A stretch of 64,000 nucleotides of DNA from Candidatus Gygaella obscura (GCA_030765485.1 JAVCCR010000032.1:166289-230288), one strand, 5' to 3'; positions 10,028 through 58,957 are shown, counted from the stretch's first letter. A program made the numbers and translations. The notes: a model not told the origin generated them from the sequence alone.

Positions 10028-10054
10028 TAACACATTAAACAATTGGAGTTAAAA

Positions 10055-11143: not shown

Positions 11144-11152
11144 AAAAATGTA

Positions 11153-11935: not shown

Positions 11936-11940
11936 TTATT

Positions 11941-17036: not shown

Positions 17037-17064
17037 AAATTCAACCCAAAAAAGTTAAAACCTA

Positions 17065-17093
17065 TTGACAAACAAAGGATTATGAAATATAGT
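17065..17093 (+). promoter_or_regulatory. Near-consensus sigma70 promoter (TTGACA-17-TATAGT) heading the T4P/c-di-GMP operon
   Basis: TTGACA at 17065-17070 and TATAGT at 17088-17093. AAGGAGG lies 7 nt before the ATG at 17131. This is the only intergenic gap of about 90 nt or more between rodA and the pilus genes. Confidence 0.5.
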
Positions 17094-17130
17094 ATTATTT
17101 AGATTAACATAATTTTAAGGAGGCATTTAT

Positions 17131-18534
17131 ATGATTAAATTATTTAAAAAAACCTCTATTTCTTCCCGGGGCTTACGCAGTAAACTGGCTGTTGCTTTTG
17201 CTTTAACTTCGACTATTCCTATACTAATCAGCGTTTATTTATTAACACAAATTACTGATATCTCTAAATTGGATTCACGTATTGGTGTGTTTCTTTTTCT
17301 GAGTCTGGTAATTGCTGTTATCGGCTATTTTGTTTTAAATACTATAGTCAGCTCGATTATTAGAACCAGCAAAAAAGCCAATGCCTATATAAACGGAAAA
17401 ACCTTTGGAGGAATGAAAATTTCCACCGATGATGAGATTTCTGATTTGAATAAAGCTATTGATAAGCTTAACGACCGTATACGCGATAATATGGATAAGC
17501 TAAGTTTTTATGATAAACAAAGCAAGCTTGTAGGTATGGATTTAAACAAAAAAATCATTGCGCTTTCAAGTCTTTTACAGATTGGAAGTTTTATTTCTTC
17601 AACCAATAATATCGATGATATTTTTTCGTTGGTTGTCGGAAAGCTGGCCAATATTGAGTCTAGCTTCGAAGTTTTTTTATTTCTGCATAATAAAAGTAAT
17701 GAGTATACGCTTGATTTTGCATCTAACCAGGAAAAAATTAAATCAAATGTTTTTACCTTATCAACCGATTCAAGAAAAATCGTTCAGGCTATTTCTAGCA
17801 ATGAGCCTTTAAGGCTTGATGTTTCTCGTTCCGAATCAAAAACCCTGGAGCGATTGGGAGAAATATTCAATATCCGCAATATAGTTATCTTTCCTATCTT
17901 TGCCTGCGAGGAGACTAAAGGGATTCTTGTAGTAGGTAGCACTAAAGGAGATTATATTTTTGAAGCATCAGATATTGAGCTTATAAGACTATTTTCTAGA
18001 CAAGTTGCTATTTCACTTGAGAAGAATCAGCTTTTTACCAAGGCAAAAAAACTGGAAGTTAAAGACGGGTTAACTGGTTTATATAATGAGCATTTTATAC
18101 GCAGCCGTCTAGAGGAAGAGATAAAACGTGCATTTATTTCTCAGAGGCCGTGTTCTTTTGTTCTTTTGACTGTAGATAGGTTTCAGGATTATCAGCAGCG
18201 CAAGGGTCAGGATGGTGCGGAGAGTTCTTTAAAACATATCGCTACTTTATTAAAAGAATCTTCTCGCGAGATTGATAAACCAGGACGATTTGGATATTCT
18301 GATTTCGCGATACTGCTTCCTGAAATGAATAAAAAGGAAGCGATTGCTCTAGCGGAAGAGGTTAGACAAAAGGTGGCTTTTATTTTTAAGGAAGAGGAAG
18401 ATGTAAAACTTCGTTTGACAATTTCAGCTGCCGTAAGTGAGAATCCCATAGATGGAATAAAAGCAGAAGAATTGATTATACATGCAAGGAATCTTTTGGC
18501 TAATAAAAACTCAGATAATAAGGTTTTTCGCTGA
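17131..18534 (+). CDS. Membrane-anchored GAF-like / degenerate-GGDEF protein with RxxD I-site retained (putative c-di-GMP receptor)
   Basis: 467 aa with two N-terminal TM helices, a HAMP-like coiled coil and a GAF-like middle domain. The C-terminal GGDEF fold has the active-site motif changed to RFGYSDF, while the upstream REID (RxxD) keeps the canonical spacing. Confidence 0.7.
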   Translation: MIKLFKKTSISSRGLRSKLAVAFALTSTIPILISVYLLTQITDISKLDSRIGVFLFLSLVIAVIGYFVLNTIVSSIIRTSKKANAYINGKTFGGMKISTDDEISDLNKAIDKLNDRIRDNMDKLSFYDKQSKLVGMDLNKKIIALSSLLQIGSFISSTNNIDDIFSLVVGKLANIESSFEVFLFLHNKSNEYTLDFASNQEKIKSNVFTLSTDSRKIVQAISSNEPLRLDVSRSESKTLERLGEIFNIRNIVIFPIFACEETKGILVVGSTKGDYIFEASDIELIRLFSRQVAISLEKNQLFTKAKKLEVKDGLTGLYNEHFIRSRLEEEIKRAFISQRPCSFVLLTVDRFQDYQQRKGQDGAESSLKHIATLLKESSREIDKPGRFGYSDFAILLPEMNKKEAIALAEEVRQKVAFIFKEEEDVKLRLTISAAVSENPIDGIKAEELIIHARNLLANKNSDNKVFR

Positions 18535-18536
18535 TA

Positions 18537-18986
18537 ATGTTTTCTCCATTTAGAAAGGTTGTCAATAAACAATTAGGTGAATTGCTGGTAGAGCATAAGA
18601 TTATAAGTGAGGCGCAGTTGAAGAAGGCGCTAGCTTTGCAAAGCCAGCGTTGCGGTGCTTTGATTGGTGAATTAATAGTAGAGCTGGGTTATGCCAAGGA
18701 AGAAGATATTGCTAATACCTTAGCTGCCCAGTACGGTTTTCCTTATTTGCCTTTGGATAATTATTCTGTTGATGAGAATATCGTAAAACTTATACCGAAA
18801 AATGTTGCAAATCAGTATTGCTTATTAGCGATAGACAAATTGGGTAATTCTATCGTTGTAGCAACAAGTAATCCTTTGAATACTCAGGCGATTGAAGACG
18901 TCGAGTATATAACCAATTGCGATGTCCGTGTTTTTATCAGTACAGCCACGAGCATCAGGGGCAAGATTAAAGAATACTACCAATAG
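18537..18986 (+). CDS. Standalone MshEN / T2SSE_N domain protein (predicted c-di-GMP-binding)
   Basis: 149 aa. QLGELLVEHKIISEAQLKKALALQ matches the MshEN 24-residue c-di-GMP binding motif (LGxxLVxx-IIxxxxLxxxLxxQ). The rest matches the GspE N-terminal domain fold consensus (...YGFPYLPLDNY...). Confidence 0.7.
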   Translation: MFSPFRKVVNKQLGELLVEHKIISEAQLKKALALQSQRCGALIGELIVELGYAKEEDIANTLAAQYGFPYLPLDNYSVDENIVKLIPKNVANQYCLLAIDKLGNSIVVATSNPLNTQAIEDVEYITNCDVRVFISTATSIRGKIKEYYQ

Positions 18987-18989
18987 TAA

Positions 18990-20717
18990 ATGGCAACATT
19001 AAAAGAAAACCTAACTAATATTCTTATTGATAATAGCCTTATTACCCGTGAGAATTTAGAAAAAGCCATTTCTACCCAGAAACAACAAGGCGGCAGTCTT
19101 AGTCAAATTCTTATAGATTCTGGAAATGTAAAAGAAAAAGATCTAGTTATTGCCTTAAGTCAAGGTTTAGGTATTCCTCCTATTAATTTAAATAAAATCA
19201 AAGTTGATAAAAAAGTAGTTAAACTGATATCTAAAGATGTTGCGCAGCGTTATTTAATCCTGCCGATTTCTCAGGTTGGGACAACGTTAACTGTGGCTAT
19301 GGCTGATCCTTTGAACGTTTTTACACTGGATGATCTAAAGGTTCTTACGAATATGAAGATTAATCCTGTGATTACTACGGCTAATGATATCAAAGACGCT
19401 ATCAAGATTTATTATGAACAATCCCAGCAGGTGGATGGTGTTAAAATAGATGATATCATTAAGAATATTTCTTCTCCGGATATAGAGTTAGTTAATGATT
19501 CTGGCAAAACGGAAGAAAATATTAGTTTTATGCATATGATCGATGAGGCACCTATTGTAAAAATAACCAATAGGTTTCTTACTGATGCGGTTAAGCTTAG
19601 CGCAAGCGATATTTTGTTTGAGCCTTTTGAGAAGACAACCCGTGTAAGATGCAGGGTAGACGGCGCCTTAAGAGAAATCGAGACTCTGCCTAAGTATATG
19701 CATGAGGCCATAGTATCGCGTACCAAGGTAATTTCCGGGCTTGATATTTCCGAACATAGGCTTCCTCAGGATGGCCGTTTTAAGATAAAATTCCAGAGTC
19801 GGGAAGTCGATTTTAGAATTTCAATTCTGCCTTCTGTTTTCGGAGAAAAGGTTGCTTTGCGTGTTTTAGATAAAACAACTGCAATGCTTGATGTTGAAAA
19901 GCTTAATTTTTCCGACCATAATTTAAATACCATTAAACATTGTTCTTCTTTCCCGCATGGCATGATGCTTGTCTGTGGTCCTACGGGTTCGGGCAAGACC
20001 ACAACACTTTATTCAATTCTTAAATATGTGGATAGTCCTGAAAAAAATATTGTAACTGTAGAAGATCCTGTAGAATATCAGCTTAATGGAGTAAATCAGG
20101 TTACTTGTCGGATTGATATTGGTTTGACATTTGCTGCGGCCTTACGTTCAATATTAAGACAAGACCCTGATATTATTATGGTTGGTGAGATTAGAGATTT
20201 TGAGACTTTGGATATATCCATAAAATCAGCTCTTACAGGGCATATGGTTTTAAGTACACTTCATACTACTACTGCTTCTGGGTCTATAATTAGGATGTTG
20301 AATATGGGGGCAGAACCTTTTTTGATTACGTCCTGCGTAGTGGGTATTATTGCTCAAAGATTGGTGCGTAAGCTTTGTCCGAAATGTAAAGAATCATATA
20401 AGCCATCAAAGGCGGTTTTGGATACTTTAAGCATAAAAGACGATATTAATGAAAATGTTAATTTTTGTCGGCCTAAAGGTTGCCCGGAATGTTTTAATGT
20501 CGGGTACCGCGGAAGAATTGCTATTTGTGAAGTACTTGTATTAACCCATGAAGTAAAGGGTTTGATTTTAAAGCGGGCGCAGGAACATCAGATAAAAAAA
20601 ATGGCTAGGTCTCAAGGGATGCGTACGTTAAGAGAAGATGGGATAGATAAGATAATTACCGGATTAACTACACCAGAGGAAGTTTTAAAGGTAACCGCTT
20701 CAGACGCAAAGGCTTAA
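18990..20717 (+). CDS. pilB: Type IV pilus assembly ATPase PilB/GspE (paralogue 1)
   Basis: 575 aa with an N-terminal MshEN-like domain. Walker A GPTGSGKTT, Asp box VEDPVEYQL, Walker B DPDIIMVGEIRD, His box TGHMVLSTLHT, and a tetracysteine CPKC...CPEC zinc motif. Confidence 0.9.
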   Translation: MATLKENLTNILIDNSLITRENLEKAISTQKQQGGSLSQILIDSGNVKEKDLVIALSQGLGIPPINLNKIKVDKKVVKLISKDVAQRYLILPISQVGTTLTVAMADPLNVFTLDDLKVLTNMKINPVITTANDIKDAIKIYYEQSQQVDGVKIDDIIKNISSPDIELVNDSGKTEENISFMHMIDEAPIVKITNRFLTDAVKLSASDILFEPFEKTTRVRCRVDGALREIETLPKYMHEAIVSRTKVISGLDISEHRLPQDGRFKIKFQSREVDFRISILPSVFGEKVALRVLDKTTAMLDVEKLNFSDHNLNTIKHCSSFPHGMMLVCGPTGSGKTTTLYSILKYVDSPEKNIVTVEDPVEYQLNGVNQVTCRIDIGLTFAAALRSILRQDPDIIMVGEIRDFETLDISIKSALTGHMVLSTLHTTTASGSIIRMLNMGAEPFLITSCVVGIIAQRLVRKLCPKCKESYKPSKAVLDTLSIKDDINENVNFCRPKGCPECFNVGYRGRIAICEVLVLTHEVKGLILKRAQEHQIKKMARSQGMRTLREDGIDKIITGLTTPEEVLKVTASDAKA

Positions 20718-20721
20718 TAAT

Positions 20722-22443
20722 ATGGTTAAATCATTAAGAGATAAAATTCTTGATTTTTTACTTGAGGAAAAACGGATTACAAGAAGCGATATAGAGAGGT
20801 TTTCTAAGCTTCAGGAGCAAAGCAATCTTAAGATTGAAGCTATTTTGATTGATAATGCTATAATTTCTGCACAGGAGTATTTGTCTATGCTGGCAAAAGA
20901 AACTAATACTCCAGTAGTATGTCTTGAAAAAATAGATTGTGATCCGGAAATTTTAAATATTATTCCTGAAAGGATATGTCAGCAGTATAGTATTTTTCCT
21001 GTTGCAAAATTGGGGAATCTTTTAACTTTGGCTATGTCAGATCCAATGAATATTTTTGCTATGGATGATATAAAGTCTTTAACTTCTTTAGAAATCAATA
21101 CAATTTTAGCCAGCGAAGAAGATATTAAAAAGAATATACAGTTTTGGTATGAGGAGTCAAAGAATAAGGATATATCTGAACTTATCGGAGAAGTCAATGA
21201 AGATGAAATAAATGTAGTCGGAGAAGGAAAAAAGAGAGAATTTGAGGGCCAGTTTGATTTAGACAGAGCAATGCTTGAAGCTGAAAAGTCTCCTGTTATC
21301 AAACTTGTTAATCTTATGCTTTCAGAGTCATATCAGAAAAGGGCATCGGATATTCATATTGAACCAGAAGAGGATTTTTTAAGAGTTCGTTACAGAATTG
21401 ATGGAATGTTGCATGATGCTTATCAGATACCGAAAGATAAGCAGAATGCCGTAATTACACGTTTAAAAATAATGTCTAATTTGGATATTACGGAGTTCCG
21501 TATTCCTCAGGACGGTCGTTTTAAAATCCGTTTGGGTCAGAATGAAGTGGATTTCCGTGTTTCCATATTACCGATCAGTTTTGGGGAAAAGGTAGTTTTG
21601 CGTTTATTGGATAAACGTAATCTTTCGATTGGTTTGGAAAAGTTGGGGTTTTTAGCTGAGCCCATGCAGAAATTCAGAGATTGTATCAATAAACCTTATG
21701 GGATGATTCTTGTAACTGGTCCTACTGGTTCTGGTAAATCGACTACGCTTTATTCGATTATCAATCAGCTCAATACTCCTACGACGCATATAATTACTGT
21801 TGAGGACCCGGTAGAGTATCAGATCGAAGGTATAGCCCAGATTCCGGTTAAGCCGGATATTGGTCTTACGTTTTCAGCAGGTTTGAGAGCACTTTTGCGT
21901 CAGAGTCCTGATATTATATTAATTGGTGAGATTAGAGATTCTGAAACTGCAGATATTTCCGTTAAGGCATCTTTGACGGGGCAGATGGTTTTATCTACGT
22001 TACATACCAATGATGCCGCAGGGGCTATAACTCGACTTATTGATATGGGGGTAGAGCCGTTTTTGGTTTCTTCAAGTTTAATCATGACTTGTGCTCAGAG
22101 ATTAAGTAGAAAGATTTGTAGTAATTGCAAGGCAGAATATAAACCTGATCCGACTGTAGTGAAAAATCTGGGAATAAAATTAGAAAAAGGTTCAGTTCTT
22201 TATCACGGAAATGGATGTTCTCATTGTAATAATACAGGTTACCGTGGTAGAATAGGGACAATTGAAGTTTTGGTTATTGACGATAAGATTAGGGAGATGA
22301 TTATTGAAAGAGTTTCATCTGATGAAATCCGTGATTATGCTGTAACCCAGGGCATGGAGACATTGAGGGACAATGGCATTCGTCAGGCTCTCATAGGTTT
22401 AACTACCTTAGAAGAGGTTTTAAGGATAACCTCAGAGGAATAA
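20722..22443 (+). CDS. Type IV pilus/T2SS ATPase PilB/GspE (paralogue 2)
   Basis: 573 aa with the same architecture as paralogue 1 (GPTGSGKSTTLYS, VEDPVEYQI, TGQMVLSTLHT, CSNC...CSHC). Full-length, with an N-terminal T2SSE_N domain. It is not a PilT. Confidence 0.9.
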   Translation: MVKSLRDKILDFLLEEKRITRSDIERFSKLQEQSNLKIEAILIDNAIISAQEYLSMLAKETNTPVVCLEKIDCDPEILNIIPERICQQYSIFPVAKLGNLLTLAMSDPMNIFAMDDIKSLTSLEINTILASEEDIKKNIQFWYEESKNKDISELIGEVNEDEINVVGEGKKREFEGQFDLDRAMLEAEKSPVIKLVNLMLSESYQKRASDIHIEPEEDFLRVRYRIDGMLHDAYQIPKDKQNAVITRLKIMSNLDITEFRIPQDGRFKIRLGQNEVDFRVSILPISFGEKVVLRLLDKRNLSIGLEKLGFLAEPMQKFRDCINKPYGMILVTGPTGSGKSTTLYSIINQLNTPTTHIITVEDPVEYQIEGIAQIPVKPDIGLTFSAGLRALLRQSPDIILIGEIRDSETADISVKASLTGQMVLSTLHTNDAAGAITRLIDMGVEPFLVSSSLIMTCAQRLSRKICSNCKAEYKPDPTVVKNLGIKLEKGSVLYHGNGCSHCNNTGYRGRIGTIEVLVIDDKIREMIIERVSSDEIRDYAVTQGMETLRDNGIRQALIGLTTLEEVLRITSEE

Positions 22444-22444
22444 A

Positions 22445-25400
22445 ATGCAAAAAGATTTAATTATCTATATTGATGAGTTGACCGAACTTTACAATAGAAG
22501 ATATCTTTCCCAGGTTTTTCCCAAGGAACTTAAAAAAGCTCAGGAAAAAAATTACAGTCTTTGGTTTTTTATGATGGATTTAGATAATTTTAAAGGCATC
22601 AATGATACCTTGGGTCATTTGGCCGGAGACGATGCTTTAAAAAGTCTCGCGGTGGTTTTGAAAAAGAATATGCGCGAGCAGGATATACTTTTTCGTTATG
22701 CAGGTGATGAATTTTCCGCAATTATCCCCGGTGGTACGCTTTCTGATGTTCTGGCGGTAGCTAAAAGAATTCTAGAAAACGTTGCCAGGTCCTCTTTTGG
22801 CAGTAATCCTATGCAGCCGGCAATGAAATTCACGGTTAGTATCGGTATTTCTTGTTTTCCTGAAGATGCAGTCGATACCCTGCGTTTGATTGATTTGGCT
22901 GACAAAGCCCTTTATGTATCGAAAAGAAAAGGTAAAAATCATATTTCCGTCGTTAGCGATGTGCCTCCAGAAGTTTTAAGTCTGTATCAGATTTTAGAAA
23001 AATTTCCTTGTCCTGTTTTTATCGATAGAGTAGAAGAATTAAACCAGCTTTTTAAAGCTACAGACGAATTTATAGCGCATAAAAAGAAAAAGAACATTTT
23101 TATATTCGGAAATTCCGGAATAGGAAAGACAAGGATTTTACATGAGTACGGAAAGAGAATTTCCAGTAAAAACATAAGCTTGATAGTTTCGCACGCAAAC
23201 GAAAAAGACATTTTTACAAATTATCATATTTTTATCGATGGTATTAGCGATTATTTCAAGACGCATAGTTTTCAGATGGAACTGCTGGAAGGTTTAGATG
23301 ATAAGGCTAAGTCAATTTTGGTAGGTTTTATTCCGGATTTGAAACGATTCGTAAGCGTTTCCGATACAGAACTTAAAAATCTTTCTGGTAAATCAATTAA
23401 GGATGAAGAAATAAAGATTATTTTCAAGAAATTTATTTCTAATATATGCAAAAAGCATTCTTTGTGTTTTGTGGTTGATGACCTGCAGTGGACAGATAAG
23501 GCAAGTTTGGATTTATTAAAGGAATTTAATTCCATAGAAGAAAGTCTGATGGTTATTGCTGCGGTTTCTAATGATTATGTTGTGCAAAAGGATAACCTTG
23601 TTCCTTTAAGCGATTTTATAACTAAGCATAGTTTATCTTTTGAGAGGCTTGATGTTAAACCATTTGAAAAAGAACAGGCTGCTAAGATGGTTAATGCTGT
23701 TTTTAATTCTTTGGATAATTTGAACGAATTTACATCGTTGTTATTTTCTGTTACCAAGGGTTCACCTTTATTTATTGAAGAGCTTCTAAAGTATTTTATA
23801 AATCGTGGTTTTGTTTTTTATCGTAAAGGAAAATGGGGTTGGTTGGATATAAGAAAAGAAGATCTTCCTTCAAGTATAGAAGAAGTCGTTGCTCAGCGTA
23901 TAAAATCTTTAAGTTCTGAATTAAAAGAGGTCATTACTCAGGCATCTGTAATCGGAGAGGGTTTTGAATTAAATCTTCTTCAGAAGTTAGGTAAAAAGAA
24001 TCAGGGCTATCTTATGGATTTGATTGAAACCGCCAAGAAATCTGGTCTTATCAGGGAGGAAAAAGGAGCTGAAGGCACCAGATTTGTTTTTACTAGTGCA
24101 AAAGTAAAGGATGTTTTATATGGTTTGGCAGATAAAAATGAAATTAAAAATCTTAACCGACAGATCGGACAGATAAAAGAAGAGATTTATAAAGGTAATG
24201 AAGATCAGGTTGCCGGCGAGTTATACTATCGATTTAAAAAGGCAGAAGATGAAAAGAAAGCTACTCGTTATGCAAAGATGGTTAAAGAAGGCCGTTCTTT
24301 TGTTTATGAAAAGAGTATTCATTTTGCCAAGGGTCTTCTGGAAGAAGTACAGGTTACTGAACAGGAAATTCCTGATAAGGTAATTGATGGAGTTTCTGAT
24401 ATTGTACGTCTTATTTATGTTTCCCAAATTAACAGCAGTCTTTATCCAAAGGGCAGCTCCATGCGTACTCAACCTTTGGCAGATTTGATTTCAAAACTAA
24501 AGAATATCTTTGAATATGTTTTGGTGGTAAGTTTTAGTCATTTTAATGAATTTTTAGTTGTTAATAATCGGATTTACGATAATGAGAGCCTTAAGGGAAC
24601 ATTTAGGAATGCATTTATTGGTCTTTTAAAGCAGAACAAGATTGAAAAAATTTCTTTTTTCCCTAGTTTAAGCGTAGAGGAGTTGGAGAATTTTTTAGAA
24701 TTGTTTGAATCAAGTGAAAAAGAAATATTCAAGAATAAATTTAATCAAGAAGAATTTGCTAATATAAAGGTAGAGTATTTAAGTTATGAGAACTATCTTT
24801 CCAAAAGGACCAAAGACAGAGAGCAGTTGCAGGATATTATGCTTTTGGATTATCTTTTAGGTAAAGTTCCTGGAGAAGGCATAGGGGGCAAGATGGATAT
24901 TCTTGATAAAATCCAGACACATAGTCAGGATATAGCTTCTGCTCTTACCAAGATGGCGGATAAAGTTAGCAAGCAAAAAGGAGTTGATAAGGATTCGGCA
25001 AGGGCAGATATACTTTCTGATAATTTTAAGAAAATATCTCAGCATATATTTAATAAAGGAGAAGGGGCCTGGGATAAGTATAAGAAAGGGCTTGCCAATA
25101 CAATACTTTCACTTGAACCTAATCTGCGCGATGAGGTTTTACATAAACAACTTGAAGAGGATAAGAAAAATGCCGCGCTTGAAAATAATCAGTCTGCTTC
25201 TGATACATCCGAAGAAGCTGTTTCTTTTGATAATACAGATGAATCGACTGGTAATTTAAAAAAAGATGCTTTGAAAGATCAGCCGCAGCAGGATATTATC
25301 AAGGCCTTAGCAGGAGAATTTCCCGAAGATGTTGTTCTGGATTTGATAAAGAAGGAATATAAAGATGGCGACAATAGCCCCGAGCAGTTTAAAGAGATAG

Positions 25401-26608
25401 TTCTAAAATTCTTGCCTGAAGATAATGACCAGAAAAAAACCTTGATGGATAAGATTAGTAAGCTTTTAAAAGAAGAAGGGGCTTCGGAAGAAGAGTTGAA
25501 GTTTCTTACTCAGGAAGAATTCTGGCCAAAACTTGGATTTAGTGAAAAGATTATAGATTTTATGAATATGGCTTCAGATAGATATGTATATATTTCCAAC
25601 AAATACGGGTTTAATCCGGTTATGGAGTTTGCGCTTTCTTCAGAGACAGGAGAGGTTAAAAAAATACTTGAACGCTTGGTTTATTTTATTGAGTCGGATA
25701 GCTTAGAAGCAAAAAAGATAGCCAAGCAGGACCTTCTGTCCTTGATTGATCTGGTGTTTACTTATAAGAAAAGCGAATTTTTAGAATTGTTAATTAATAC
25801 ATTTATCGCTGAATTGCGCAAAGAGCATAATGAAGAAACTACCAGTATATTTATTAATCATATTGAAAAACTTACTTATGTTGTTTTTTCTATGGCAGCT
25901 TTTGATTTATTCTCCAAAGTAATTAATGAATTAAAAAAACTTGTTGCAGAAGATAACACTTCCGAAGATATGAAGGCAAATCTCAGTTTGGTTTTATCTC
26001 ATATTTGCTCAGATGAAATAGTTCAACGATTGATTGAAAGATTATTTAATTATGTTGATAGCAATGAGGATTATTCTCAAATTATTCAGATTTTTGTTGC
26101 CATCGGTAAGCAGGCAGCGAATAGATTGATTGATGAGGCAATGTTTGAGAAAAACATAAATGTTGTAGGTTATTTCGGCGGATACCTTAGAAGAAAGGCT
26201 GTCGGTAATATTTTAAATATGATGGATAAAAATGATGTTATGGAGTTTATAAAAAATAGACTTCAAAACGAGAAGTGGTTTATTGTACGCAATACAATTG
26301 ATTTAATTATGCATATAGATAATCCTGAGTATATTTTACTTCTTGGAATCGTGAAAGATAATAACGATTCGCGCGTAAGAAGAAAACTGCTTTTTGTTTT
26401 GGGTAGGTTTAAGAGCAAGCAGGCATTGGATATTTGTTATTCTCTGGCTAATGACCGTGATGATGCTATTGCTATGGGTTCGATAAAGCTGATTGCTTCT
26501 ATTGGAGATAAAGATTCTCTTGATTTTTTGAACAATTTATCTGTAAAACATTCCTTGCGTGATGAGAAAAATAAAGCTATTGAAGAGCTGAAAGAAAGGT
26601 TAAAATAA
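22445..26608 (+). CDS. Large multidomain signalling protein: GGDEF (RYAGDEF, I-site REQD) - AAA16/STAND-type P-loop NTPase - helical/HEAT-like repeats
   Basis: 1387 aa. Residues 1-175 form a GGDEF fold (DLDNFKGINDTLGHLAGD...RYAGDEF...KALYVSKRKGKN). Walker A is FGNSGIGKTR and Walker B is LCFVVDDLQWTDKASLDLL, the AAA_16/STAND signature. The C-terminal ~250 aa are HEAT/PBS-like repeats (DSRVRRKLLFVLGRF...NDRDDAIAMGSIKLIASIGD). It is translationally coupled to pilB2 upstream and to the MshEN gene downstream. Confidence 0.7.
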   Translation: MQKDLIIYIDELTELYNRRYLSQVFPKELKKAQEKNYSLWFFMMDLDNFKGINDTLGHLAGDDALKSLAVVLKKNMREQDILFRYAGDEFSAIIPGGTLSDVLAVAKRILENVARSSFGSNPMQPAMKFTVSIGISCFPEDAVDTLRLIDLADKALYVSKRKGKNHISVVSDVPPEVLSLYQILEKFPCPVFIDRVEELNQLFKATDEFIAHKKKKNIFIFGNSGIGKTRILHEYGKRISSKNISLIVSHANEKDIFTNYHIFIDGISDYFKTHSFQMELLEGLDDKAKSILVGFIPDLKRFVSVSDTELKNLSGKSIKDEEIKIIFKKFISNICKKHSLCFVVDDLQWTDKASLDLLKEFNSIEESLMVIAAVSNDYVVQKDNLVPLSDFITKHSLSFERLDVKPFEKEQAAKMVNAVFNSLDNLNEFTSLLFSVTKGSPLFIEELLKYFINRGFVFYRKGKWGWLDIRKEDLPSSIEEVVAQRIKSLSSELKEVITQASVIGEGFELNLLQKLGKKNQGYLMDLIETAKKSGLIREEKGAEGTRFVFTSAKVKDVLYGLADKNEIKNLNRQIGQIKEEIYKGNEDQVAGELYYRFKKAEDEKKATRYAKMVKEGRSFVYEKSIHFAKGLLEEVQVTEQEIPDKVIDGVSDIVRLIYVSQINSSLYPKGSSMRTQPLADLISKLKNIFEYVLVVSFSHFNEFLVVNNRIYDNESLKGTFRNAFIGLLKQNKIEKISFFPSLSVEELENFLELFESSEKEIFKNKFNQEEFANIKVEYLSYENYLSKRTKDREQLQDIMLLDYLLGKVPGEGIGGKMDILDKIQTHSQDIASALTKMADKVSKQKGVDKDSARADILSDNFKKISQHIFNKGEGAWDKYKKGLANTILSLEPNLRDEVLHKQLEEDKKNAALENNQSASDTSEEAVSFDNTDESTGNLKKDALKDQPQQDIIKALAGEFPEDVVLDLIKKEYKDGDNSPEQFKEIVLKFLPEDNDQKKTLMDKISKLLKEEGASEEELKFLTQEEFWPKLGFSEKIIDFMNMASDRYVYISNKYGFNPVMEFALSSETGEVKKILERLVYFIESDSLEAKKIAKQDLLSLIDLVFTYKKSEFLELLINTFIAELRKEHNEETTSIFINHIEKLTYVVFSMAAFDLFSKVINELKKLVAEDNTSEDMKANLSLVLSHICSDEIVQRLIERLFNYVDSNEDYSQIIQIFVAIGKQAANRLIDEAMFEKNINVVGYFGGYLRRKAVGNILNMMDKNDVMEFIKNRLQNEKWFIVRNTIDLIMHIDNPEYILLLGIVKDNNDSRVRRKLLFVLGRFKSKQALDICYSLANDRDDAIAMGSIKLIASIGDKDSLDFLNNLSVKHSLRDEKNKAIEELKERLK

Positions 26609-26610
26609 TA

Positions 26611-27081: not shown

Positions 27082-27143
27082 TTGTACACATATTATTATA
27101 CAATTAAAATATTACTTGTTATATTTAAAGAAAGGATTTTTAA

Positions 27144-28349: not shown

Positions 28350-28353
28350 AAGG

Positions 28354-28824: not shown

Positions 28825-28827
28825 GTT

Positions 28828-29442: not shown

Positions 29443-29452
29443 AAAGGAAATG

Positions 29453-32038: not shown

Positions 32039-32048
32039 TTTTTAATTA

Positions 32049-32702
32049 ATGGCGCAGATAAATCTTTTACAGACAAGGATGGTTTTAAAGACAAAAAAAG
32101 CCAAGGCGCAAAATGGTGCAGGTAGCGCTAAGGGTTTTAATTTTGATTTTAAGATAAATTTCAGAAGAATGCCCCGCTGGTTTTTTATAATTGCTATTGG
32201 CTGGATTGCGTTTTTATTTATCGGTGAAACTGTATTGCTTTTGCGTCTGAGTGGTGAGAAGAAGAAATTAAGAATTTTAGAAACCGAAGGAACTCTTTTT
32301 TCAAAGAGCCCTAAGGAATTGAGTGCTTTAAAGAAAAGAAAAAAAAGCATGCAGGATGCTTTAGGTATTATTGAGAGTTTTTTGATTACCAAAACACCGT
32401 TTTCGCAGGCGCTAAATATTATCAGTGATGAAGTAGTTGATGGTCTTTGGCTCGAGAAGATATTTTTTAATTCTAAAAAAATTGATAAAGATAACGATCA
32501 AATAATTATAAAGATAAACGGTAAGGTTTATTCAGTAATTGCCCAAGAACAGATTGATATTCTGGGACAGTTTTCTAGTGGTTTAAAAAATAATCCTTAT
32601 TTTGAGTTATTATTTAGTGGTCTAAAGGTAGGCAATCTTAAAAATGTAAATTTTCTTGGTTTTGATGTGTTGGATTTTGAGATGGAGGTAACTTTAAAAT
32701 AA
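32049..32702 (+). CDS. pilN: Type IV pilus inner-membrane alignment protein PilN
   Basis: N-terminal MAQINLLQTR (the INLL hallmark of PilN), a single TM (WFFIIAIGWIAFLFIG), then a periplasmic domain. Confidence 0.6.
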   Translation: MAQINLLQTRMVLKTKKAKAQNGAGSAKGFNFDFKINFRRMPRWFFIIAIGWIAFLFIGETVLLLRLSGEKKKLRILETEGTLFSKSPKELSALKKRKKSMQDALGIIESFLITKTPFSQALNIISDEVVDGLWLEKIFFNSKKIDKDNDQIIIKINGKVYSVIAQEQIDILGQFSSGLKNNPYFELLFSGLKVGNLKNVNFLGFDVLDFEMEVTLK

Positions 32703-32707
32703 GGCAT

Positions 32708-33289
32708 ATGGATTTCGATATTAAACAAATTATTGATTGGGCTAAGTTGCGCAAAGTAGAACTGATTCTGCTTAGCGTGTTATTTTTGATAAGTACTGTA
32801 TTGTCTTTCTTGCTATTTCAACCGCAGGCAAGAAAAATCATGCAGTCTCAAGAGAATCTTAAAGCAAGCACAAAAGATACTAGTAATCTGCGTACGGCAC
32901 AGGTTGAGTTAGCTAATTTGAAAAAAGAGATTATTTCTATCGAGGAGAAATTAGTAAGCCACGAGGGAAAACTTTTTTCTCAGGAAGACTCGCAGGCATT
33001 TTTAAATTATATCAACCGGATTTCAAAGTTTTATAACGTGAGGATTCAAAAGATTAATCCACTTTCACAGGTAAAGAAGGAAGTGAAATCTCTTGATAAG
33101 ATTTATTTAGCTTCTCCTTATCGGTTGAGTTTAACTTGCAGTTATCATAATCTGGGTAAATTCTTAAATAAATTGGAGCAGTCAAAAGATAGGTTTGTTA
33201 GGGTTGATAGTCTTTCCGTACAGGCTGATAGTTCTAAGACAAGAGAGCATAAAGTTGAGCTGGGGATAACTATTTTTTCCATAATGTGA
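32708..33289 (+). CDS. pilO: Type IV pilus protein PilO-like
   Basis: 193 aa with an N-terminal TM, a coiled coil and a ferredoxin-like C-terminus. Position after pilN. Confidence 0.5.
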   Translation: MDFDIKQIIDWAKLRKVELILLSVLFLISTVLSFLLFQPQARKIMQSQENLKASTKDTSNLRTAQVELANLKKEIISIEEKLVSHEGKLFSQEDSQAFLNYINRISKFYNVRIQKINPLSQVKKEVKSLDKIYLASPYRLSLTCSYHNLGKFLNKLEQSKDRFVRVDSLSVQADSSKTREHKVELGITIFSIM

Positions 33290-33290
33290 G

Positions 33291-33677
33291 ATGAAAAGAA
33301 TAATTATAATATTTTTGGTTTTGATTTTAACTTCAATTTGTCTTGCAGAAGAAAATGCTTTTGAAGAAAGATTGAGTTTTAAGTATAATGATAATGATAA
33401 GCGTGATCCGTTGATCCCTTTACTTGATAAAGATGGTTTACGTCCTAAATCAGAGTTGTTTGAGAAGGCAGAGCTGCCTATAGAAATAAATTTATCAGGT
33501 ATTGTTTGGAATAAAGATGTGCAATTTGCTATAATAAATGGTAAAATAGTAAAAGAAAATGAAGAAGTTGCAAGAGGGTTGATTTTAGAAAAAATAAATC
33601 TTGAAAGCGTCGTCTTGGAGTATGGAGAAAGAAGCACTACTATATATATAGGAGGCCCCAAGAAGGATGGTAAGTAG
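33291..33677 (+). CDS. pilP: PilP-like pilus assembly protein
   Basis: 128 aa with a signal peptide, the KRDPLIP motif (the RDPF-type motif of PilP), and a C-terminal beta domain. Position between pilO and pilQ. Confidence 0.5.
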   Translation: MKRIIIIFLVLILTSICLAEENAFEERLSFKYNDNDKRDPLIPLLDKDGLRPKSELFEKAELPIEINLSGIVWNKDVQFAIINGKIVKENEEVARGLILEKINLESVVLEYGERSTTIYIGGPKKDGK

Positions 33678-35211
33678 TAAAAGAATAAAATTAGTTTTAA
33701 TTTTTTTATTTATTTTTAGTTTCTGCAACTTTACACTTTACGGTGAAGAGCCGTCTATGATTGAGCCTTTATCTGATGAGTATCAGATGGCCTTTGAGCA
33801 AATATCCCAAGAAAAACCACAGCAAGAGATTAAACAAGAGTCTAAAGAAGAGCCTATTGCTATTGAAGCAGGCCGGTCTTTTAACGGAGAAAATACTATA
33901 GATGAAGATTTTGTGAATCTGGCCTTTGATAATGCTGATATCCGCGATGTTATTAAGGTATTGGCTGCGAAAAGCGATATGAATATTATCGTTGGAGAAG
34001 ACGTAAAGGCTAATGTTACCATGAAGCTTAAGGATGTTATCTGGGAGTCGGCCTTAGAATTAATTCTAAACACGTATAATCTTACTTATCAAAAAGAAGG
34101 CAATCTTATAAGAGTTATGACTTTAACTGAGGCAGAAGAGGTAGCGAAGAAAGTACCTATGATTACAAAGATTATTCCTCTTAATTTTGCTCAGACTGCG
34201 GAGATGTCAGCATCGATTGCAAAGATGCTTTCTGCAAGAGGTTCTGTTCAGGAAAATAGCCGTACTAATACGCTGATTATTACTGATATTCCTTCGCGCG
34301 TAAGGATGATGGAAGAGACTATTGAAAAACTTGATACGCCTACGCCGCAGGTTTTAATTAATGTGTTGATTGTCGATATTACTTTAACCGACAGTGATGA
34401 TTTAGGTGTTGACTGGCAGGCAATTACTACAAATCAGCTTGCAGATCTTTCTTCTGCTAATAGATCGAAGACAGCTACATTAACACAGCCCAGCAACATG
34501 TCTTCAACCGGAGGACCGGCATTTACGCTAGCGCTTGTTAAAAAATTCGGCGAAGCTGATTTCACCGCTAATCTACAGGCATGGATTGAAAATAAAGAAG
34601 CAAAGGTTTTAGCAAATCCAAGGATTTTGACGCTTGATAACCAGGAAGCAAAGATTGAGATAATAAATCAATTTCCTTATTTGCAGACTTCCAGTTCAAG
34701 TGATGGCGGTACTACATCGGGAACTGAATATAAGAATATTGGAACAAGTCTTAGCGTTACTGCGCATATTACTAATGATGGGCATATAACTTTGAATCTA
34801 AAACCTTCTCAGGATATAAATGCTGGAAGTGATTCTACTACAGGTGCACCAATAGTTGATACACGTTCAGCGGAAACAAACGTGTTGGTAAGAGATGGCC
34901 AGACTGTTGCTTTAGGCGGTTTAAGGCGCGTTGATAGGGCTACAACTGTTAATAAAGTTCCTATTTTAGGAGATATCCCCTTTATTGGTAAAATATTCCA
35001 GAATAGACAGATTGATGATAAAGATGTTGAGTTGGTGATGTTTGTCACGCCTTATATAATTAAGGATGCTGGAATTAGCGAAGAGGAAAAAATATTTATA
35101 GAAGCAAATCTTCCTGGTCCGCAGAGGCCGTTTTCCCGGAATAGTCCTTTTCTTCTGGAAGAAAAATACGATTTAAGACCTCCTGTAAAAAAAATTAAAG
35201 GGAATTGGTAA
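33667..35211 (+). CDS. pilQ: Type IV pilus secretin PilQ
   Basis: Signal peptide and N0/secretin_N domains. The C-terminal secretin block is GGLRRVDRATTVNKVPILGDIPFIGKIFQNRQIDDKDVELVMFVTPYII. Confidence 0.9.
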   Translation: MVSSKRIKLVLIFLFIFSFCNFTLYGEEPSMIEPLSDEYQMAFEQISQEKPQQEIKQESKEEPIAIEAGRSFNGENTIDEDFVNLAFDNADIRDVIKVLAAKSDMNIIVGEDVKANVTMKLKDVIWESALELILNTYNLTYQKEGNLIRVMTLTEAEEVAKKVPMITKIIPLNFAQTAEMSASIAKMLSARGSVQENSRTNTLIITDIPSRVRMMEETIEKLDTPTPQVLINVLIVDITLTDSDDLGVDWQAITTNQLADLSSANRSKTATLTQPSNMSSTGGPAFTLALVKKFGEADFTANLQAWIENKEAKVLANPRILTLDNQEAKIEIINQFPYLQTSSSSDGGTTSGTEYKNIGTSLSVTAHITNDGHITLNLKPSQDINAGSDSTTGAPIVDTRSAETNVLVRDGQTVALGGLRRVDRATTVNKVPILGDIPFIGKIFQNRQIDDKDVELVMFVTPYIIKDAGISEEEKIFIEANLPGPQRPFSRNSPFLLEEKYDLRPPVKKIKGNW

Positions 35212-36854
35212 TGAGAAGAAAGCTTCCATTTGTTTTTGCACTTTTATTTTCCATTTCTTTTTTAAATTGTTCCTTTGTTAAAGCAGAGTATTCTCTTATT
35301 GGTGAAGAGGGATTGATTTGGAAGAAAAGCGTCGACGGCATAAAAGATGCAGTAAGAGATTTGCTTGCAGAGAATAAGAATTTAAAGCAGCAGATCGATT
35401 TAAGATCTCTTGAGATGCATAAGCTAAATGAAGTTCTTAAGGCTTTGCAGGATAAAAACGACACGTTGGAAAAGAAGATTGAATCAATGGATCTTAAGGT
35501 TACATTAAATAGCAAAGTCAAATCTCTTACCCGGAGAAATGAATCTTTAAAAGGGCTAAAAGGCTCGTTAGAAGTGGAGGTTAAACAGCTAAGGGCAAAT
35601 AATATAAAATTAAAAAAAGATTCCGATGTTTTGGAGAAAGAGGTTAGTTCTTTAGGTAAAAGATTCGAAATCACTCAAACCCAGCTTGAGGAATTAAAGG
35701 ATTCGTATATAAATTTTAAACAAAAGTCAGTTGATTATGAGAAAGAGTTAGAAGGAAAGTTGATAAATCTACAATCAGAAAATAAAAGGTCATCTGGAGC
35801 TATCCAGGATAACGAGAAATTAGCTGTTCAGCTTCGAGATTTAAAAGAAGAAAAGATTGATCTTCTAAGTCAGCTTAAGACTACAAAAGAGCAGTTTAAG
35901 AATATCGATTCATTAAGTCAGAAGATTGTTGATTTACAGAATGAAAAGCAAAGATTATCCGATAGTTTAGAAAATTCTCGAATTGAAATTGAGGAGCTGA
36001 AAAAAACTCTGGAAGAAAAAGACAATTTTATAGATTCCAATAAAAATGAACTTAAAAAGATTGAATTGCTCTCAAATGAATTATCTAAAGCCGAGAAGGA
36101 AAAGTTAGGTTTTAAAGATGAAATTGTTTCTCTTAAGATACAGTTAAATGAATCCAACAATAAATTAGAGATTTCTGAAAAAGAGATAGAGGTTTTAAGC
36201 GAATCTTTCAATAAATTCAAGCAAAAATCTATTGAAAATCAAGAAAAACTAATTGAAACACAAAAAGAAAACACCAACCTAGGAAGCAGAATCGCTCCTT
36301 TAAAAAATCAACTTGATAATTTACAGGAAAAACTCGTAATTTTAGAAAAAGAAAAAGACTTGGCTTTAAGAAAATCCGTTGTTGTAAATGATGCAGATAA
36401 GGCTAAAAAGGTTAAAAGAATTCCTGTTTATTTAAAAGAGCAGGTTGAAGATAAAAGTAGCACAATACCTAAAGTTATAAAATTAAGGGCATTTCAACAA
36501 GCAGAAAAAAAACTTAACAGCTTACAAAAGCTTGATTTAGGTATTATTGAAGTCATGCTAAGTAACGCTTATAATTACGCTAATAATAATCAGATAAGCC
36601 TAGCATCTCGGGAATATAGAAAGGTTTTAGATCTTGATTCTAAGAATAAAGATGCGCTTTTTAATCTTGGTGTTGTTTATTTAAATAATCATAATGTTAA
36701 ACATGCGATTGCTAATTTTGAGAAACTTGTAGAATTAGATCCAAATGATGCGCAGGCTTTGTATAACCTTGCTTTATGTTACAGTAAGATGCATAATAAA
36801 AAGCAAACCGAATTTTATTATTTAAAATACCTGGAACTTGAAAATGACTCTTGA
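35211..36854 (+). CDS. Secreted long coiled-coil protein with C-terminal TPR repeats (FimV/PilF-like candidate)
   Basis: Signal peptide MRRKLPFVFALLFSISFLNCSFVKA, then about 400 aa of continuous heptad coiled coil (ELKK..., LQNEKQRL...), then 2-3 TPR motifs (ALFNLGVVYL..., AQALYNLALCYSKM...). Confidence 0.45.
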   Translation: MRRKLPFVFALLFSISFLNCSFVKAEYSLIGEEGLIWKKSVDGIKDAVRDLLAENKNLKQQIDLRSLEMHKLNEVLKALQDKNDTLEKKIESMDLKVTLNSKVKSLTRRNESLKGLKGSLEVEVKQLRANNIKLKKDSDVLEKEVSSLGKRFEITQTQLEELKDSYINFKQKSVDYEKELEGKLINLQSENKRSSGAIQDNEKLAVQLRDLKEEKIDLLSQLKTTKEQFKNIDSLSQKIVDLQNEKQRLSDSLENSRIEIEELKKTLEEKDNFIDSNKNELKKIELLSNELSKAEKEKLGFKDEIVSLKIQLNESNNKLEISEKEIEVLSESFNKFKQKSIENQEKLIETQKENTNLGSRIAPLKNQLDNLQEKLVILEKEKDLALRKSVVVNDADKAKKVKRIPVYLKEQVEDKSSTIPKVIKLRAFQQAEKKLNSLQKLDLGIIEVMLSNAYNYANNNQISLASREYRKVLDLDSKNKDALFNLGVVYLNNHNVKHAIANFEKLVELDPNDAQALYNLALCYSKMHNKKQTEFYYLKYLELENDS

Positions 36855-37920
36855 TCAAAAAGGCTTTTTAGGAATAAAGAGTAGTTTTTTTAAGAAAAAA
36901 GAAAAAAGTTTTGTTGGAATTGATATTGGTTCATCAAATCTTAAAATTGTAAGGCTTGCCCCGAATAAAGAAACTAAGAAAATCCAGTTAACTGATTTTG
37001 CGAATATAGCTTTTGAGGAACAGGTTTCTAGTGACCAGATAAAAAAGGCATTAGAGGAGGCATTACGCCAAACCAATATTTCCAAAGATAGCGATGTGGT
37101 TTTTAATATCCCCAATAACTCTGCGATAACCCGTTATGTTGTGATGCCGAAAATGAACCATGATGATTTAAGAAAGGCTATTGGGTATGAGCTGGAGAAA
37201 TATATTGCTTTTGATACAAAAGAAGCCGTTTACGACTTCCGTATTTTAGAAAACGCACAAGTAAAAGAAGGACATTTGAAGGTCCTTTTGGTTATTACTA
37301 AAAAGGAAACTGTTGATGAAAGGGTGAAGGCAATCGAGGATGTAGGGTTTATTCCTAAGGTGGTGAGTATTGATTCAGTTGTGATTTCTAATACATTTTA
37401 TCTTAATCATGCTGATAAAAAGGATAAGAATATCGCTATTGTAAATCTTGGTTCAAGGCTTTGTAGTATAAGTGTTGTAAGGGGCGGTATCTCCAATTTT
37501 ATGCGTGATATCGCTGTTGGCATAGAAAATATCGTAAGTCTGGTTTCGGAAAAGCTAGAGATGAATAAGGCCGATATCTTAAATTCTATATTAAAGCCGG
37601 AACTTCAGTCGAAAGAGTTTAAAGATATAATAAATTCTGTACTTTCAAATCTATTAAATGAACTTTACCTTTCTTTTGATTATTACGAAACGCAGTTTGA
37701 GACTTCTATCGATGAAATTTATATAACCGGTGGACTTTCGCAACAGCCGGGATTAATAGAATTTTTATCCAATAATCTAGGTATAACGGTAAATAAGCTT
37801 AATCCTTTACAGAACCTTGATATGTCAGTCGATTTGAGGTCGAAGCTTGATTCGAAGAAGGATATTATGGCTGTAAGCATAGGTCTTGCCTTAGAAGATT
37901 CCGATTTAAAATATTTTTAA
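36844..37920 (+). CDS. pilM: Type IV pilus assembly protein PilM (actin-like)
   Basis: FVGIDIGSSNLKIVRL phosphate-1 motif with a PilM/FtsA-like fold. ATG 36844 is the likely start; the ORF track gives TTG 36838. Confidence 0.85.
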   Translation: MTLDQKGFLGIKSSFFKKKEKSFVGIDIGSSNLKIVRLAPNKETKKIQLTDFANIAFEEQVSSDQIKKALEEALRQTNISKDSDVVFNIPNNSAITRYVVMPKMNHDDLRKAIGYELEKYIAFDTKEAVYDFRILENAQVKEGHLKVLLVITKKETVDERVKAIEDVGFIPKVVSIDSVVISNTFYLNHADKKDKNIAIVNLGSRLCSISVVRGGISNFMRDIAVGIENIVSLVSEKLEMNKADILNSILKPELQSKEFKDIINSVLSNLLNELYLSFDYYETQFETSIDEIYITGGLSQQPGLIEFLSNNLGITVNKLNPLQNLDMSVDLRSKLDSKKDIMAVSIGLALEDSDLKYF

Positions 37921-37928
37921 AATTTCTT

Positions 37929-38315
37929 ATGAAAAAAGAACTTATCGTTATTGGTGATAAAGTGTTGATTTCTGTTTATGAAGGAAGCGATAAGACAGAT
38001 TTTGGACTGTATTTACCTCAAGGGATAAAAGAAAAAGAAAAAGTTGCCGCAGGTTTGATTGTTAAATCCGGTCCCGGTTATCCTGTGTGGCAGGCAAATA
38101 CAATAGAGAATGAAGACTGGAAACAGCCTTATAATAAAGAAGCTACAAATTACATAGCGCTTCAAGCAAAAGAAGGTGATTATTGTATTTTCTTGCGTGA
38201 TTCTGCAGTGGAAGTCCGTTATGAAAAGAAAAAATACGTTGTAGTACCGCATTCGGCAATACTTCTTTTGGTCAGAGGCGATATTGACAAAGCGATAAAT
38301 CTTCTGGAAAAGTAA
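37929..38315 (+). CDS. GroES/cpn10-fold protein (orphan co-chaperonin-like)
   Basis: 128 aa. LIVIGDKVLISVYEGSDKTDFGLYLPQGIKEKEKVAAGLIVKSGPG aligns to the GroES pattern (L.P.GDRVLV....T.GGI.LP....K...G.VVAVG.G). It carries a ~30 aa insertion. No groEL is adjacent. Confidence 0.45.
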   Translation: MKKELIVIGDKVLISVYEGSDKTDFGLYLPQGIKEKEKVAAGLIVKSGPGYPVWQANTIENEDWKQPYNKEATNYIALQAKEGDYCIFLRDSAVEVRYEKKKYVVVPHSAILLLVRGDIDKAINLLEK

Positions 38316-58950: not shown

Positions 58951-58957
58951 TAGGCTA

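Follow-up and report, generated by a model that had tools for sequence, protein, structure and literature searches.

Control of type IV pili (T4P) by the MshEN domain is known and, to our knowledge, has always been established with the sensor fused to the motor ATPase. The residues that hold the ligand lie in a tandem 24-residue motif and have been dissected by mutation. In MshE, either G11L or G40I abolishes binding of cyclic di-GMP (c-di-GMP), and changes of the conserved hydrophobic residues cost more than 10-fold (PMC5013675). Replacement of the Gly at motif position 3 (Gly3) by Ala costs 10- to 30-fold in binding, and binding by the resurrected GSPII-A domain of PilF is abolished when motif II starts with Ser or when the Gln at position 24 (Gln24) is replaced by another residue (PMC12002112). 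Lys or Leu can stand in for the first-position Arg, and hydrophobic side chains at this position have been proposed to predict nanomolar affinity; the dissociation constants of PilF GSPII-B and of its K167L variant are 6 nM and 2 nM, respectively (PMC11731258). Here we describe a pilus gene cluster from Candidatus Gygaella obscura (Omnitrophota) in which sensor and motor appear to be encoded separately. The cluster lies at 17131-37920 on the + strand of a 64,000-nucleotide (nt) stretch (GCA_030765485.1, JAVCCR010000032.1:166289-230288; hereafter the window) and contains two small MshEN-only proteins (MshEN_A and MshEN_B) and a large GGDEF-STAND-HEAT protein (BIG). We read it as a private c-di-GMP circuit within a type IVa pilus (T4aP)-like operon, running from a STAND-gated cyclase through a trans-acting MshEN receptor to the PilB motors, and assign this reading a probability of about 0.6. 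The circuit is probably dedicated and local.

The domain assignments of a preliminary description of this DNA were reproduced when the translated open reading frames (ORFs) were searched with Pfam hidden Markov models (HMMs). This includes its two free-standing MshEN proteins, since MshEN_A (149 amino acids [aa]; 18537-18986, +) and MshEN_B (156 aa; 26611-27081, +, beginning 2 nt after the BIG gene) match MshEN (PF05157) only. The Pfam model spans residues ~60 to 149, which form the C-terminal subdomain, and the ligand is held by the first ~62 residues. NCBIfam NF053729, a curated 53-residue model of the c-di-GMP motif with a cut-off of 38, gives scores of 55.2 for MshEN_A and 58.8 for MshEN_B. 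We also scored the motif out of 10, counting a hydrophobic residue at position 2, Gly3, hydrophobic residues at positions 17 and 21, and Gln24 in each of the two tandem 24-residue motifs. These read LLGQIFLKSGIISKEQLKEALETQ-KKEGG-FLGSVLIKLGYLTEMDLVTGLSSQ in MshEN_B (LLG...Q, a 5-aa spacer, FLG...Q) and QLGELLVEHKIISEAQLKKALALQ-SQRCGA-LIGELIVELGYAKEEDIANTLAAQ in MshEN_A (QLG...Q, a 6-aa spacer, LIG...Q); they are arginine-free, and their first residue is hydrophobic or Gln. Spacers of 5 to 7 residues are found in relatives and in Geobacter PilB. All 19 stand-alone MshEN proteins (the two from the window and 17 orthologues) score 10/10; their first residue is Leu or Gln in motif I (Arg in a single case) and invariably hydrophobic in motif II. 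The motif residues are invariant columns, and the best-conserved part, of a 16-member alignment of the MshEN_B family.

Both small proteins align over their full length to the N-domains of MshE, PilB and PilF (phmmer). An AlphaFold2 (AF2) model of MshEN_B, with a predicted local distance difference test score (pLDDT) of 86, matches the MshE/c-di-GMP structure 5HTL in Foldseek with template-modelling (TM) scores of 0.75/0.82 and a root-mean-square deviation of 2.2-2.3 Å. Further matches of the model are the GSPII-B complexes of PilF and the complex of the Xanthomonas PilB N-domain with PilZ, and the C-subdomain of the model, taken alone, matches the GspL-binding N1 domain of GspE (4PHT, 2BH1). 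The two-subdomain MshEN fold (a four-helix bundle and an alpha/beta C-subdomain) is found in MshEN_B by the model and in both proteins by alignment and Pfam. With the tandem motif intact, MshEN_A and MshEN_B are putative c-di-GMP receptors. The possibility that these small ORFs are products of a split gene or frameshift was rejected, because both PilBs have full N-domains of their own; the small ORFs are also conserved as separate genes in many assemblies. Novelty is not claimed for stand-alone MshEN proteins as such, which are numerous: an exhaustive profile search yielded ~30,000 MshEN clusters, and the 150 top-ranking ones include 43 proteins of 115-200 aa with a single domain (a word-indexed search with MshEN_B gave 16 proteins, far fewer than the profile search).

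The two PilB ATPases of the cluster differ from these proteins at the ligand contacts. The preliminary description had counted MshEN four times as a c-di-GMP receptor, including the N-domains of both PilBs. That count is not upheld, since Pfam scores the C-subdomain, and PilB1 (575 aa; 18990-20717, +) and PilB2 (573 aa; 20722-22443, +), each with Pfam MshEN and T2SSE matches, have Gly3 in neither motif and no Gln24 in motif II. The MshEN-like fold of both N-domains is kept, whereas the ligand motif is degenerate. Position 3 of the PilB1 motifs (NLT.../SLS...) is Thr and Ser, and position 24 of motif II is Gly; in PilB2 (KIL.../KIE...) position 3 is Leu and Glu and position 24 of motif II is Glu, so that PilB2 has the same Gly-to-Leu change that kills binding in MshE. 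NF053729 scores are 44.2 for PilB1, narrowly over the cut-off, and 24.2 for PilB2, under it. An intact motif is found in none of the ~28 ATPases of loci that carry the cassette (motif scores of 6-8/10); the ATPase of locus L091 is the sole case in which Gly3 is kept in motif I alone, and the PilBs of L006 and L170 wholly lack the four-helix bundle. For reference, the non-binder PilF GSPII-A scores 7 and the PilBs of Myxococcus and Geobacter score 9-10. One relative, L104, has a PilB with an intact fused motif, and no stand-alone MshEN is present there. The motif is thus lost from the PilB motors, and with it, presumably, their own sensing of c-di-GMP. Gly3 and Gln24 would not be required for folding of the bundle, since the PilB N-domains keep its core without them, and the invariance of both residues in the small proteins argues for ligand binding.

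BIG (1387 aa; 22445-26608, +) had been described as a GGDEF-NTPase-HEAT protein, and Pfam bears this out with matches to GGDEF, AAA_16 (3.6e-14) and HEAT_2; it consists of a GGDEF domain, a STAND NTPase, a middle region and an ARM/HEAT solenoid. The AGDEF active site (A-site; A86-G87-D88-E89-F90) is invariant in 37 homologues, and the same alignment shows D45, D47, K50, N53, D54, H58, D62 and R84 as well as Walker A G225/G227/K228 and Walker B D351 to be invariant. An RxxD sequence (REQD) lies five residues upstream of the A-site in the window; the homologues have a VRxxD consensus that includes its Arg and Asp, and D80 is invariant. BIG therefore looks catalytically competent, as a putative dedicated diguanylate cyclase. 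D62 occupies what we take to be the position of the guanine-specific Asp of GGDEF enzymes, and because it is invariant, a Hypr-GGDEF enzyme producing cyclic GMP-AMP is unlikely and this reading was rejected. The AGDEF variant is catalytically active in Vibrio cholerae VCA0965 (PMC3974145).

Residues ~190-640 of BIG have the features of STAND proteins, namely a P-loop NTPase carrying Walker A/B, then helical and winged-helix modules and a sensor made of repeats, and residues 193-632 match the STAND part of TOMM kinase/cyclase fusions (TIGR03903). The GGDEF part alone matches the PDB by sequence, and no such match was found beyond residue 180. In an AF2 model of residues 190-1387 (mean pLDDT 79, predicted TM score 0.43) the single domains are reliable and their mutual arrangement is not. 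The top Foldseek matches of this model are the STAND-TPR protein 6MFV, Apaf-1/apoptosome, Cdc6/Orc1 and NLRs, followed by ARM/HEAT solenoids. GGDEF catalysis requires two domains brought together, and STAND modules oligomerise upon activation; we therefore propose that the STAND module gates the cyclase.

The first gene of the cluster (17131-18534, +) encodes a membrane-anchored protein with two transmembrane (TM) segments and Pfam matches to GAF and GGDEF (GAF-GGDEF*), and it holds the same cluster position in the window, L005, L090, L168 and L169. The A-site is degenerate (GYSDF), with the K, N, D and H substrate residues gone, and it is degenerate in all orthologues (GYSDF, SDSEF, SEYQF, DHSQF), which carry a HAMP domain. 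This is the degenerate GGDEF protein that had been said to retain its RxxD inhibitory site (I-site). REID is indeed present in the window, five residues upstream of GYSDF, but orthologues have SDID (L005, L090, L168) or DQID (L169) at this position, and REID occurs only in Gygaella. A degenerate-GGDEF I-site receptor of the PopA/PelD type was rejected on the absence of RxxD from the orthologues. GAF-GGDEF* is probably a conserved accessory of the cluster and not a canonical I-site receptor.

Gene neighbourhoods of homologues came from identity look-up and from scanning metagenomes with the middle region of BIG, which excludes the GGDEF domain, as the seed; the loci were annotated with phmmer. 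The seed was a 5-sequence alignment (a 9-sequence version was too divergent), and about 17 of the 80 loci returned are true orthologues. A contig scan with the full-length BIG alignment picked generic GGDEF patterns, with at least 80 unrelated GGDEF loci from many phyla that were useless for synteny. BIG homologues with full-length coverage form about a hundred 90%-identity clusters and belong to Omnitrophota wherever the source is named, and partial relatives occur in Planctomycetota. BIG itself is 100% identical to a protein that NCBI lists under a Candidatus Gygaella obscura metagenome-assembled genome, and the cluster locus is also present on several metagenome contigs. The order PilB-PilB-BIG-MshEN-PilC is found in L005, L089, L090, L092, L094, L095, L097-L100 and L102 (BIG 30-42% identity), and the partial contigs L091, L093, L101 and L103 agree with it. 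On deeper branches (BIG 24-28% identity) the gene order is altered and the parts are still together: L168 and L169 have mreBCD-pbp2-rodA, GAF-GGDEF*, a PilT-like ATPase, BIG, MshEN, PilB, PilB, PilC, pilins and PilMNOPQ, and L006 (a 1.8-Mb Omnitrophota record) and L170 have BIG-MshEN-PilT-like-PilB-PilC. An MshEN-only gene directly follows BIG in 14 of the 16 distinct loci with downstream DNA available, often after a gap of 0-17 nt. The pair is adjacent to pilB/pilC in 14 of the 16, at BIG identities down to 24%; the two others are L104 and L096, in which BIG has TPR, ROK and LacI genes as neighbours.

Because the same genes are linked in distant relatives, their clustering is not due to chance. 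This comparison of homologous loci had been chosen beforehand as one that could refute a link between the c-di-GMP parts and the pilus genes, and it found that link conserved across Omnitrophota. Of the multi-input c-di-GMP layer that had been proposed, the cyclase beside an MshEN receptor remains, whereas four sensors and an I-site receptor do not. The layer is better described as one cyclase with one or two trans-acting receptors serving ATPases that appear to be sensor-dead. In L104 (1237-10909) the distant BIG homologue (1448 aa) stands outside any pilus operon, with a lone divergent PilB, the one with the intact fused MshEN motif, 3.6 kb away and a Wzy_C (O-antigen-ligase-like) gene between the two. 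L104 may represent the unsplit ancestral state.

In the private circuit that we propose, BIG would be the diguanylate cyclase, its AGDEF domain fused to the conserved STAND NTPase and long ARM/HEAT solenoid. The solenoid would sense or scaffold a signal, nucleotide-dependent oligomerisation of the STAND module would bring the GGDEF domains together, and RxxD would limit the output. The c-di-GMP would then be captured by MshEN_B and, in the Gygaella clade, also by MshEN_A, which is encoded just before PilB1; their fold and motif are of the arginine-free type whose affinity is nanomolar in Thermus PilF GSPII-B. The N-terminal fold of PilB, having lost the ligand-contacting Gly and Gln, would be kept as a docking surface. 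Loaded MshEN may act in trans, its target being either PilB or the PilM/PilC platform, which it would contact via its GspE-N1-like C-subdomain. Gating of the ATPase by c-di-GMP would in this way license pilus extension, and both activation and inhibition would fit. GAF-GGDEF* would take part as a conserved accessory. A bolder version is speculative and, in our view, unlikely in its full form: an apoptosome-like BIG oligomer, docked at the pilus base by its ARM/HEAT solenoid, would fire a private burst of c-di-GMP on a contact or prey cue, and arginine-free MshEN proteins of nanomolar affinity would read it and switch the sensor-dead PilB on. The result would be a phylum-wide, contact-triggered switch for pilus firing in predatory or epibiotic Omnitrophota and the first MshE sensor split from its ATPase and recoupled to a dedicated cyclase.

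The same components may be read in other ways. The stand-alone MshEN proteins could be c-di-GMP-dependent decoys that use their N1-like C-subdomain to compete with the PilB N-domains for PilM, PilN or PilC, in which case c-di-GMP would brake piliation. The fold common to the PilB N-domains and the stand-alone proteins is consistent with such competition, as is the match of the MshEN_B C-subdomain to the GspL-binding N1 domain of GspE (4PHT, 2BH1). However, c-di-GMP promotes pilus function in the studied MshE system and in that of PilF (PMC11731258), and we consider decoys doubtful. There might also be no dedicated circuit at all, with BIG a general cellular cyclase located near pilus genes by chance and MshEN reading the global pool. 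Homologues that are unlinked to pilus genes (L096, L104, L007) fit this explanation, which we nevertheless judge improbable, given that BIG stays directly upstream of MshEN in 14/16 distinct loci despite permutations of gene order and identities of 24-42%.

Most motif positions are hydrophobic core residues and a consensus motif can be non-binding (PMC12002112), so the MshEN-only proteins could be structural assembly adaptors without nucleotide binding that keep the motif to build the four-helix bundle. The PilB N-domains, however, keep the bundle (core positions 7-8 of 8) without Gly3 and Gln24, yet both residues are invariant in 19/19 stand-alone proteins, and adaptors of this kind are highly improbable. 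It is slightly harder still to credit that the cluster encodes a type II secretion system (T2SS) instead of a pilus. The PilB paralogues and PilC do score nearly as well on GspE/GspF models, under all equivalog cut-offs, and PilT is missing from the window; but PilQ and PilM pass T4P-specific cut-offs whereas GspD fails its own, PilM is encoded apart from PilN, which has the INLL motif, none of GspC, GspL and GspM is present, and relatives have a PilT-like ATPase in the cluster.

Several points weigh against the private circuit. A consensus motif alone is not enough for binding: PilF GSPII-A with a restored consensus did not bind until inter-subdomain contacts were removed (PMC12002112). Judged by sequence, the Phe at position 1 of MshEN_B motif II and the Gln at position 1 of MshEN_A motif I lie outside the R/K/L consensus, and the MshEN_A spacer has 6 residues where the extended consensus has 5. 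PilB1 is borderline by profile score despite its lost contact residues and may retain residual binding. BIG homologues away from pilus genes (L096, L104 and the planctomycete locus L007, which has no pilus genes nearby) indicate that the cyclase need not be exclusive to the pilus. No c-di-GMP phosphodiesterase (EAL, HD-GYP) is encoded in the window, the span to which this result applies, which bears on the idea of a local pool. Co-transcription of the pilus/c-di-GMP cluster, and with it the extent of the operon, is what we infer.

The machine itself is of the T4aP type, with two PilBs, PilC, two pilins, an 862-aa pilin-like protein, PilN, PilO, a PilP-like protein, PilQ, a coiled-coil/TPR protein and PilM. 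The type IVa components PilB, C, M, N, O, P and Q and Glu5 prepilins are present, PilN being identified by motif and TM helix and PilP by position. The extension-type ATPase PilB1 and its paralogue PilB2 are 43% identical, and Walker A/B and tetracysteine motifs are intact in both. The platform protein PilC (27144-28349, +; two Pfam T2SSF matches) is followed by pilin 1 (156 aa from the ATG at 28354; 28354-28824, +; MKKSF|SLIELV) and pilin 2 (204 aa; 28828-29442, +; ...NKA|FSILELV), both with an N_methyl match and Glu5. After the pilins comes the 862-aa protein (29450-32038, +), with an N-terminal hydrophobic segment and no Glu5, for which no Pfam, NCBIfam or PDB sequence match was found. Homologues occupy the same position in L094, L095, L098 and L099, and the protein may act at the pilus tip or resemble a minor pilin. 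In L006 a copy of its gene lies upstream of BIG in divergent orientation.

PilN (217 aa; 32049-32702, +) carries an N-terminal MAQINLL motif and one TM helix. Neither of the ORFs that had been called PilX-like and PilN has HMM support in the window; the PilN call survives on these two features, and the L168 orthologue at the equivalent position has a weak match to PF05137 (PilN). Downstream are PilO (32708-33289, +; PF04350), a small periplasmic protein with an N-terminal signal sequence and a T2SSB-like stretch (33291-33677, +), whose position weakly suggests PilP, and the secretin PilQ (33667-35211, +), which scores 293.5 on TIGR02515 (cut-off 284.35) in addition to its Pfam match and falls under the GspD model cut-off. 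A protein with a signal sequence, a long coiled coil and a C-terminal TPR match in Pfam (35205-36854, +) is a candidate pilotin or periplasmic accessory protein, and a similar-sized protein occupies its place in L005. PilM (36838-37920, +) matches PF11104 (PilM_2; 1e-40) and TIGR01175 (152.7, cut-off 133).

The pilus set had been called complete, which does not apply to the window, where neither PilT nor PilD was found; both may be encoded elsewhere in the Gygaella genome. Short PilT-like T2SSE ATPases (352-420 aa) lie inside the cluster of relatives (L168 8920-9978, L169 8916-9992, L006 14632-15894, L170 14654-15874), and in L168 and L169 the gene occupies the exact slot where Gygaella and the P0004 clade have MshEN_A. 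In L170, a 23S_rRNA_IVP-family gene (17546-17941) separates pilB from pilC, which is followed by two Kelch/beta-propeller proteins (19254-22633).

By ORF coordinates, neighbouring genes of the cluster overlap or are 1-10 nt apart; only the gap in front of pilC is wider (62 nt), and a 94-nt gap precedes the first gene. The single strand and short spacing noted in the preliminary description are thus confirmed, but they do not define an operon. The window has ~35% G+C; every called gene lies on its + strand, and each 2-kb bin of 1-64000 shows positive GC skew (0.13-0.27). The whole 64 kb is co-directional and tightly packed, and therefore strand and spacing do not delimit an operon. The promoter that had been proposed, a sigma-70-like TTGACA-17-TATAGT (17065-17093, +) in the 94-nt gap, matches 11/12 positions and is the top promoter-like site in 16.5-36.4 kb; such sites overall are no more numerous than in shuffles. 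No terminator-like site follows pilM at the 3' end of the cluster, no Rfam families (and hence no c-di-GMP riboswitch) were found in the window, and no tRNA genes were found there. A perfect 12/12 sigma-70 consensus, TTGACA-17-TATAAT, is located at 43895-43923 in the gap before a mechanosensitive-channel-like gene. It is the next strong promoter-like site past pilM, and transcription may start anew there beyond the long run of co-directional genes.

The interval previously assigned to the operon ended at 38315 and included a Cpn10-like ORF (128 aa; 37929-38315, +) directly after pilM. This ORF lies outside the conserved cluster and is missing at that position in L005, where HisG follows pilM; its similarity to GroES/Cpn10 is weak (41 bits in Pfam, below all NCBIfam cut-offs), and it is probably not part of the pilus system. 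Further downstream are housekeeping genes and a phosphotransacetylase apparently present as two adjoining genes (38317-40337), AAA_26+DRTGG (362 aa) and PTA_PTB (310 aa). The start codon of the second shares one base with the stop codon of the first, and acetate kinase is next. Directly upstream of the cluster are the elongasome genes mreB-mreC-mreD-PBP2-rodA (10043-15301), and a radical-SAM gene is also found upstream. The elongasome neighbourhood is kept in L005, L168 and L169, though BIG is only 24-34% identical there, which may reflect functional coupling or mere conserved gene order.

A 165-aa ORF at 48564-49061 covers only the first ~147 of 427 positions of an amino-acid permease model and may be a truncated gene or pseudogene. 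An ORF at 58946-64000 (+) runs past the window end; it encodes 1685 aa or more, has a hydrophobic segment at its N-terminus and lies in DNA of higher G+C (0.41-0.43) than the window has elsewhere. Members of the order Gygaellales (Omnitrophota) have been reported to encode giant secreted proteins with pilus or secretion genes on their flanks (bioRxiv 10.64898/2026.06.07.730766). The genus Gygaella was described from Ace Lake, Antarctica, and that description does not mention pili (PMC8542988).

The literature on Omnitrophota with pili or c-di-GMP and on Gygaella yielded no description of this module, and no characterised GGDEF-STAND protein was found in the literature. Omnitrophota are thought to live as predators or epibionts. 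If our reading is true, the locus would offer a naturally split system in which to study how MshEN passes ligand binding to the PilB hexamer. It would also place GGDEF-STAND proteins in a functional context for the first time and point to a switch that may regulate host attachment in Omnitrophota.

Among described systems, MshE of the V. cholerae MSHA pilus (5HTL) has the same two-subdomain fold and tandem 24-residue motif and likewise acts on a T4P extension ATPase. In Gygaella, by contrast, the sensor is a separate polypeptide of about 150 aa, the ATPase N-domains lack Gly3 and Gln24, the motif is arginine-free and a dedicated cyclase appears to be encoded in the operon. The arginine-free motif is found in GSPII-B of Thermus thermophilus PilF (8PDK; PMC11731258), where the first residues are Lys and Leu, compared with position-1 pairs of L/F, Q/L or L/M in the stand-alone proteins described here. 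GSPII-B is fused to the ATPase as one of three such domains, whereas here the domain is separate. The N-domain of Xanthomonas PilB, to which Foldseek also leads (7LKM), does not itself read c-di-GMP. We take the sensor there to be a degenerate EAL protein with a PilZ adaptor and not MshEN, and we know of no cyclase in the FimX-PilZ-PilB operon. That complex (7LKM/7LKO) is like ours in using a PilB N-domain of the MshEN fold as a dock for a trans sensor.

On the cyclase side, BIG shares with the TOMM kinase/cyclase fusions a cyclase joined to an AAA_16/STAND switch and a helical-repeat sensor, and mycobacterial AC-NB-ARC-TPR proteins follow the same cyclase-STAND-repeat plan. Unlike both, BIG has an N-terminal GGDEF domain as its cyclase and ARM/HEAT repeats, and it is tied to a pilus operon. 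Pairing of a specific cyclase with an MshEN receptor for local and not global signalling is found in DgcJ-NfrB of Escherichia coli, where the interaction has been shown experimentally (PMC8669469), while in Gygaella the pairing is predicted from the genes. In that system, MshEN is fused to a glycosyltransferase, the output is exopolysaccharide, and DgcJ is not a STAND protein. Pilus control by MshEN is therefore known, and what would be new here is a combination conserved in Omnitrophota: apparently sensor-dead ATPases, an arginine-free stand-alone sensor and a GGDEF-STAND-HEAT cyclase.

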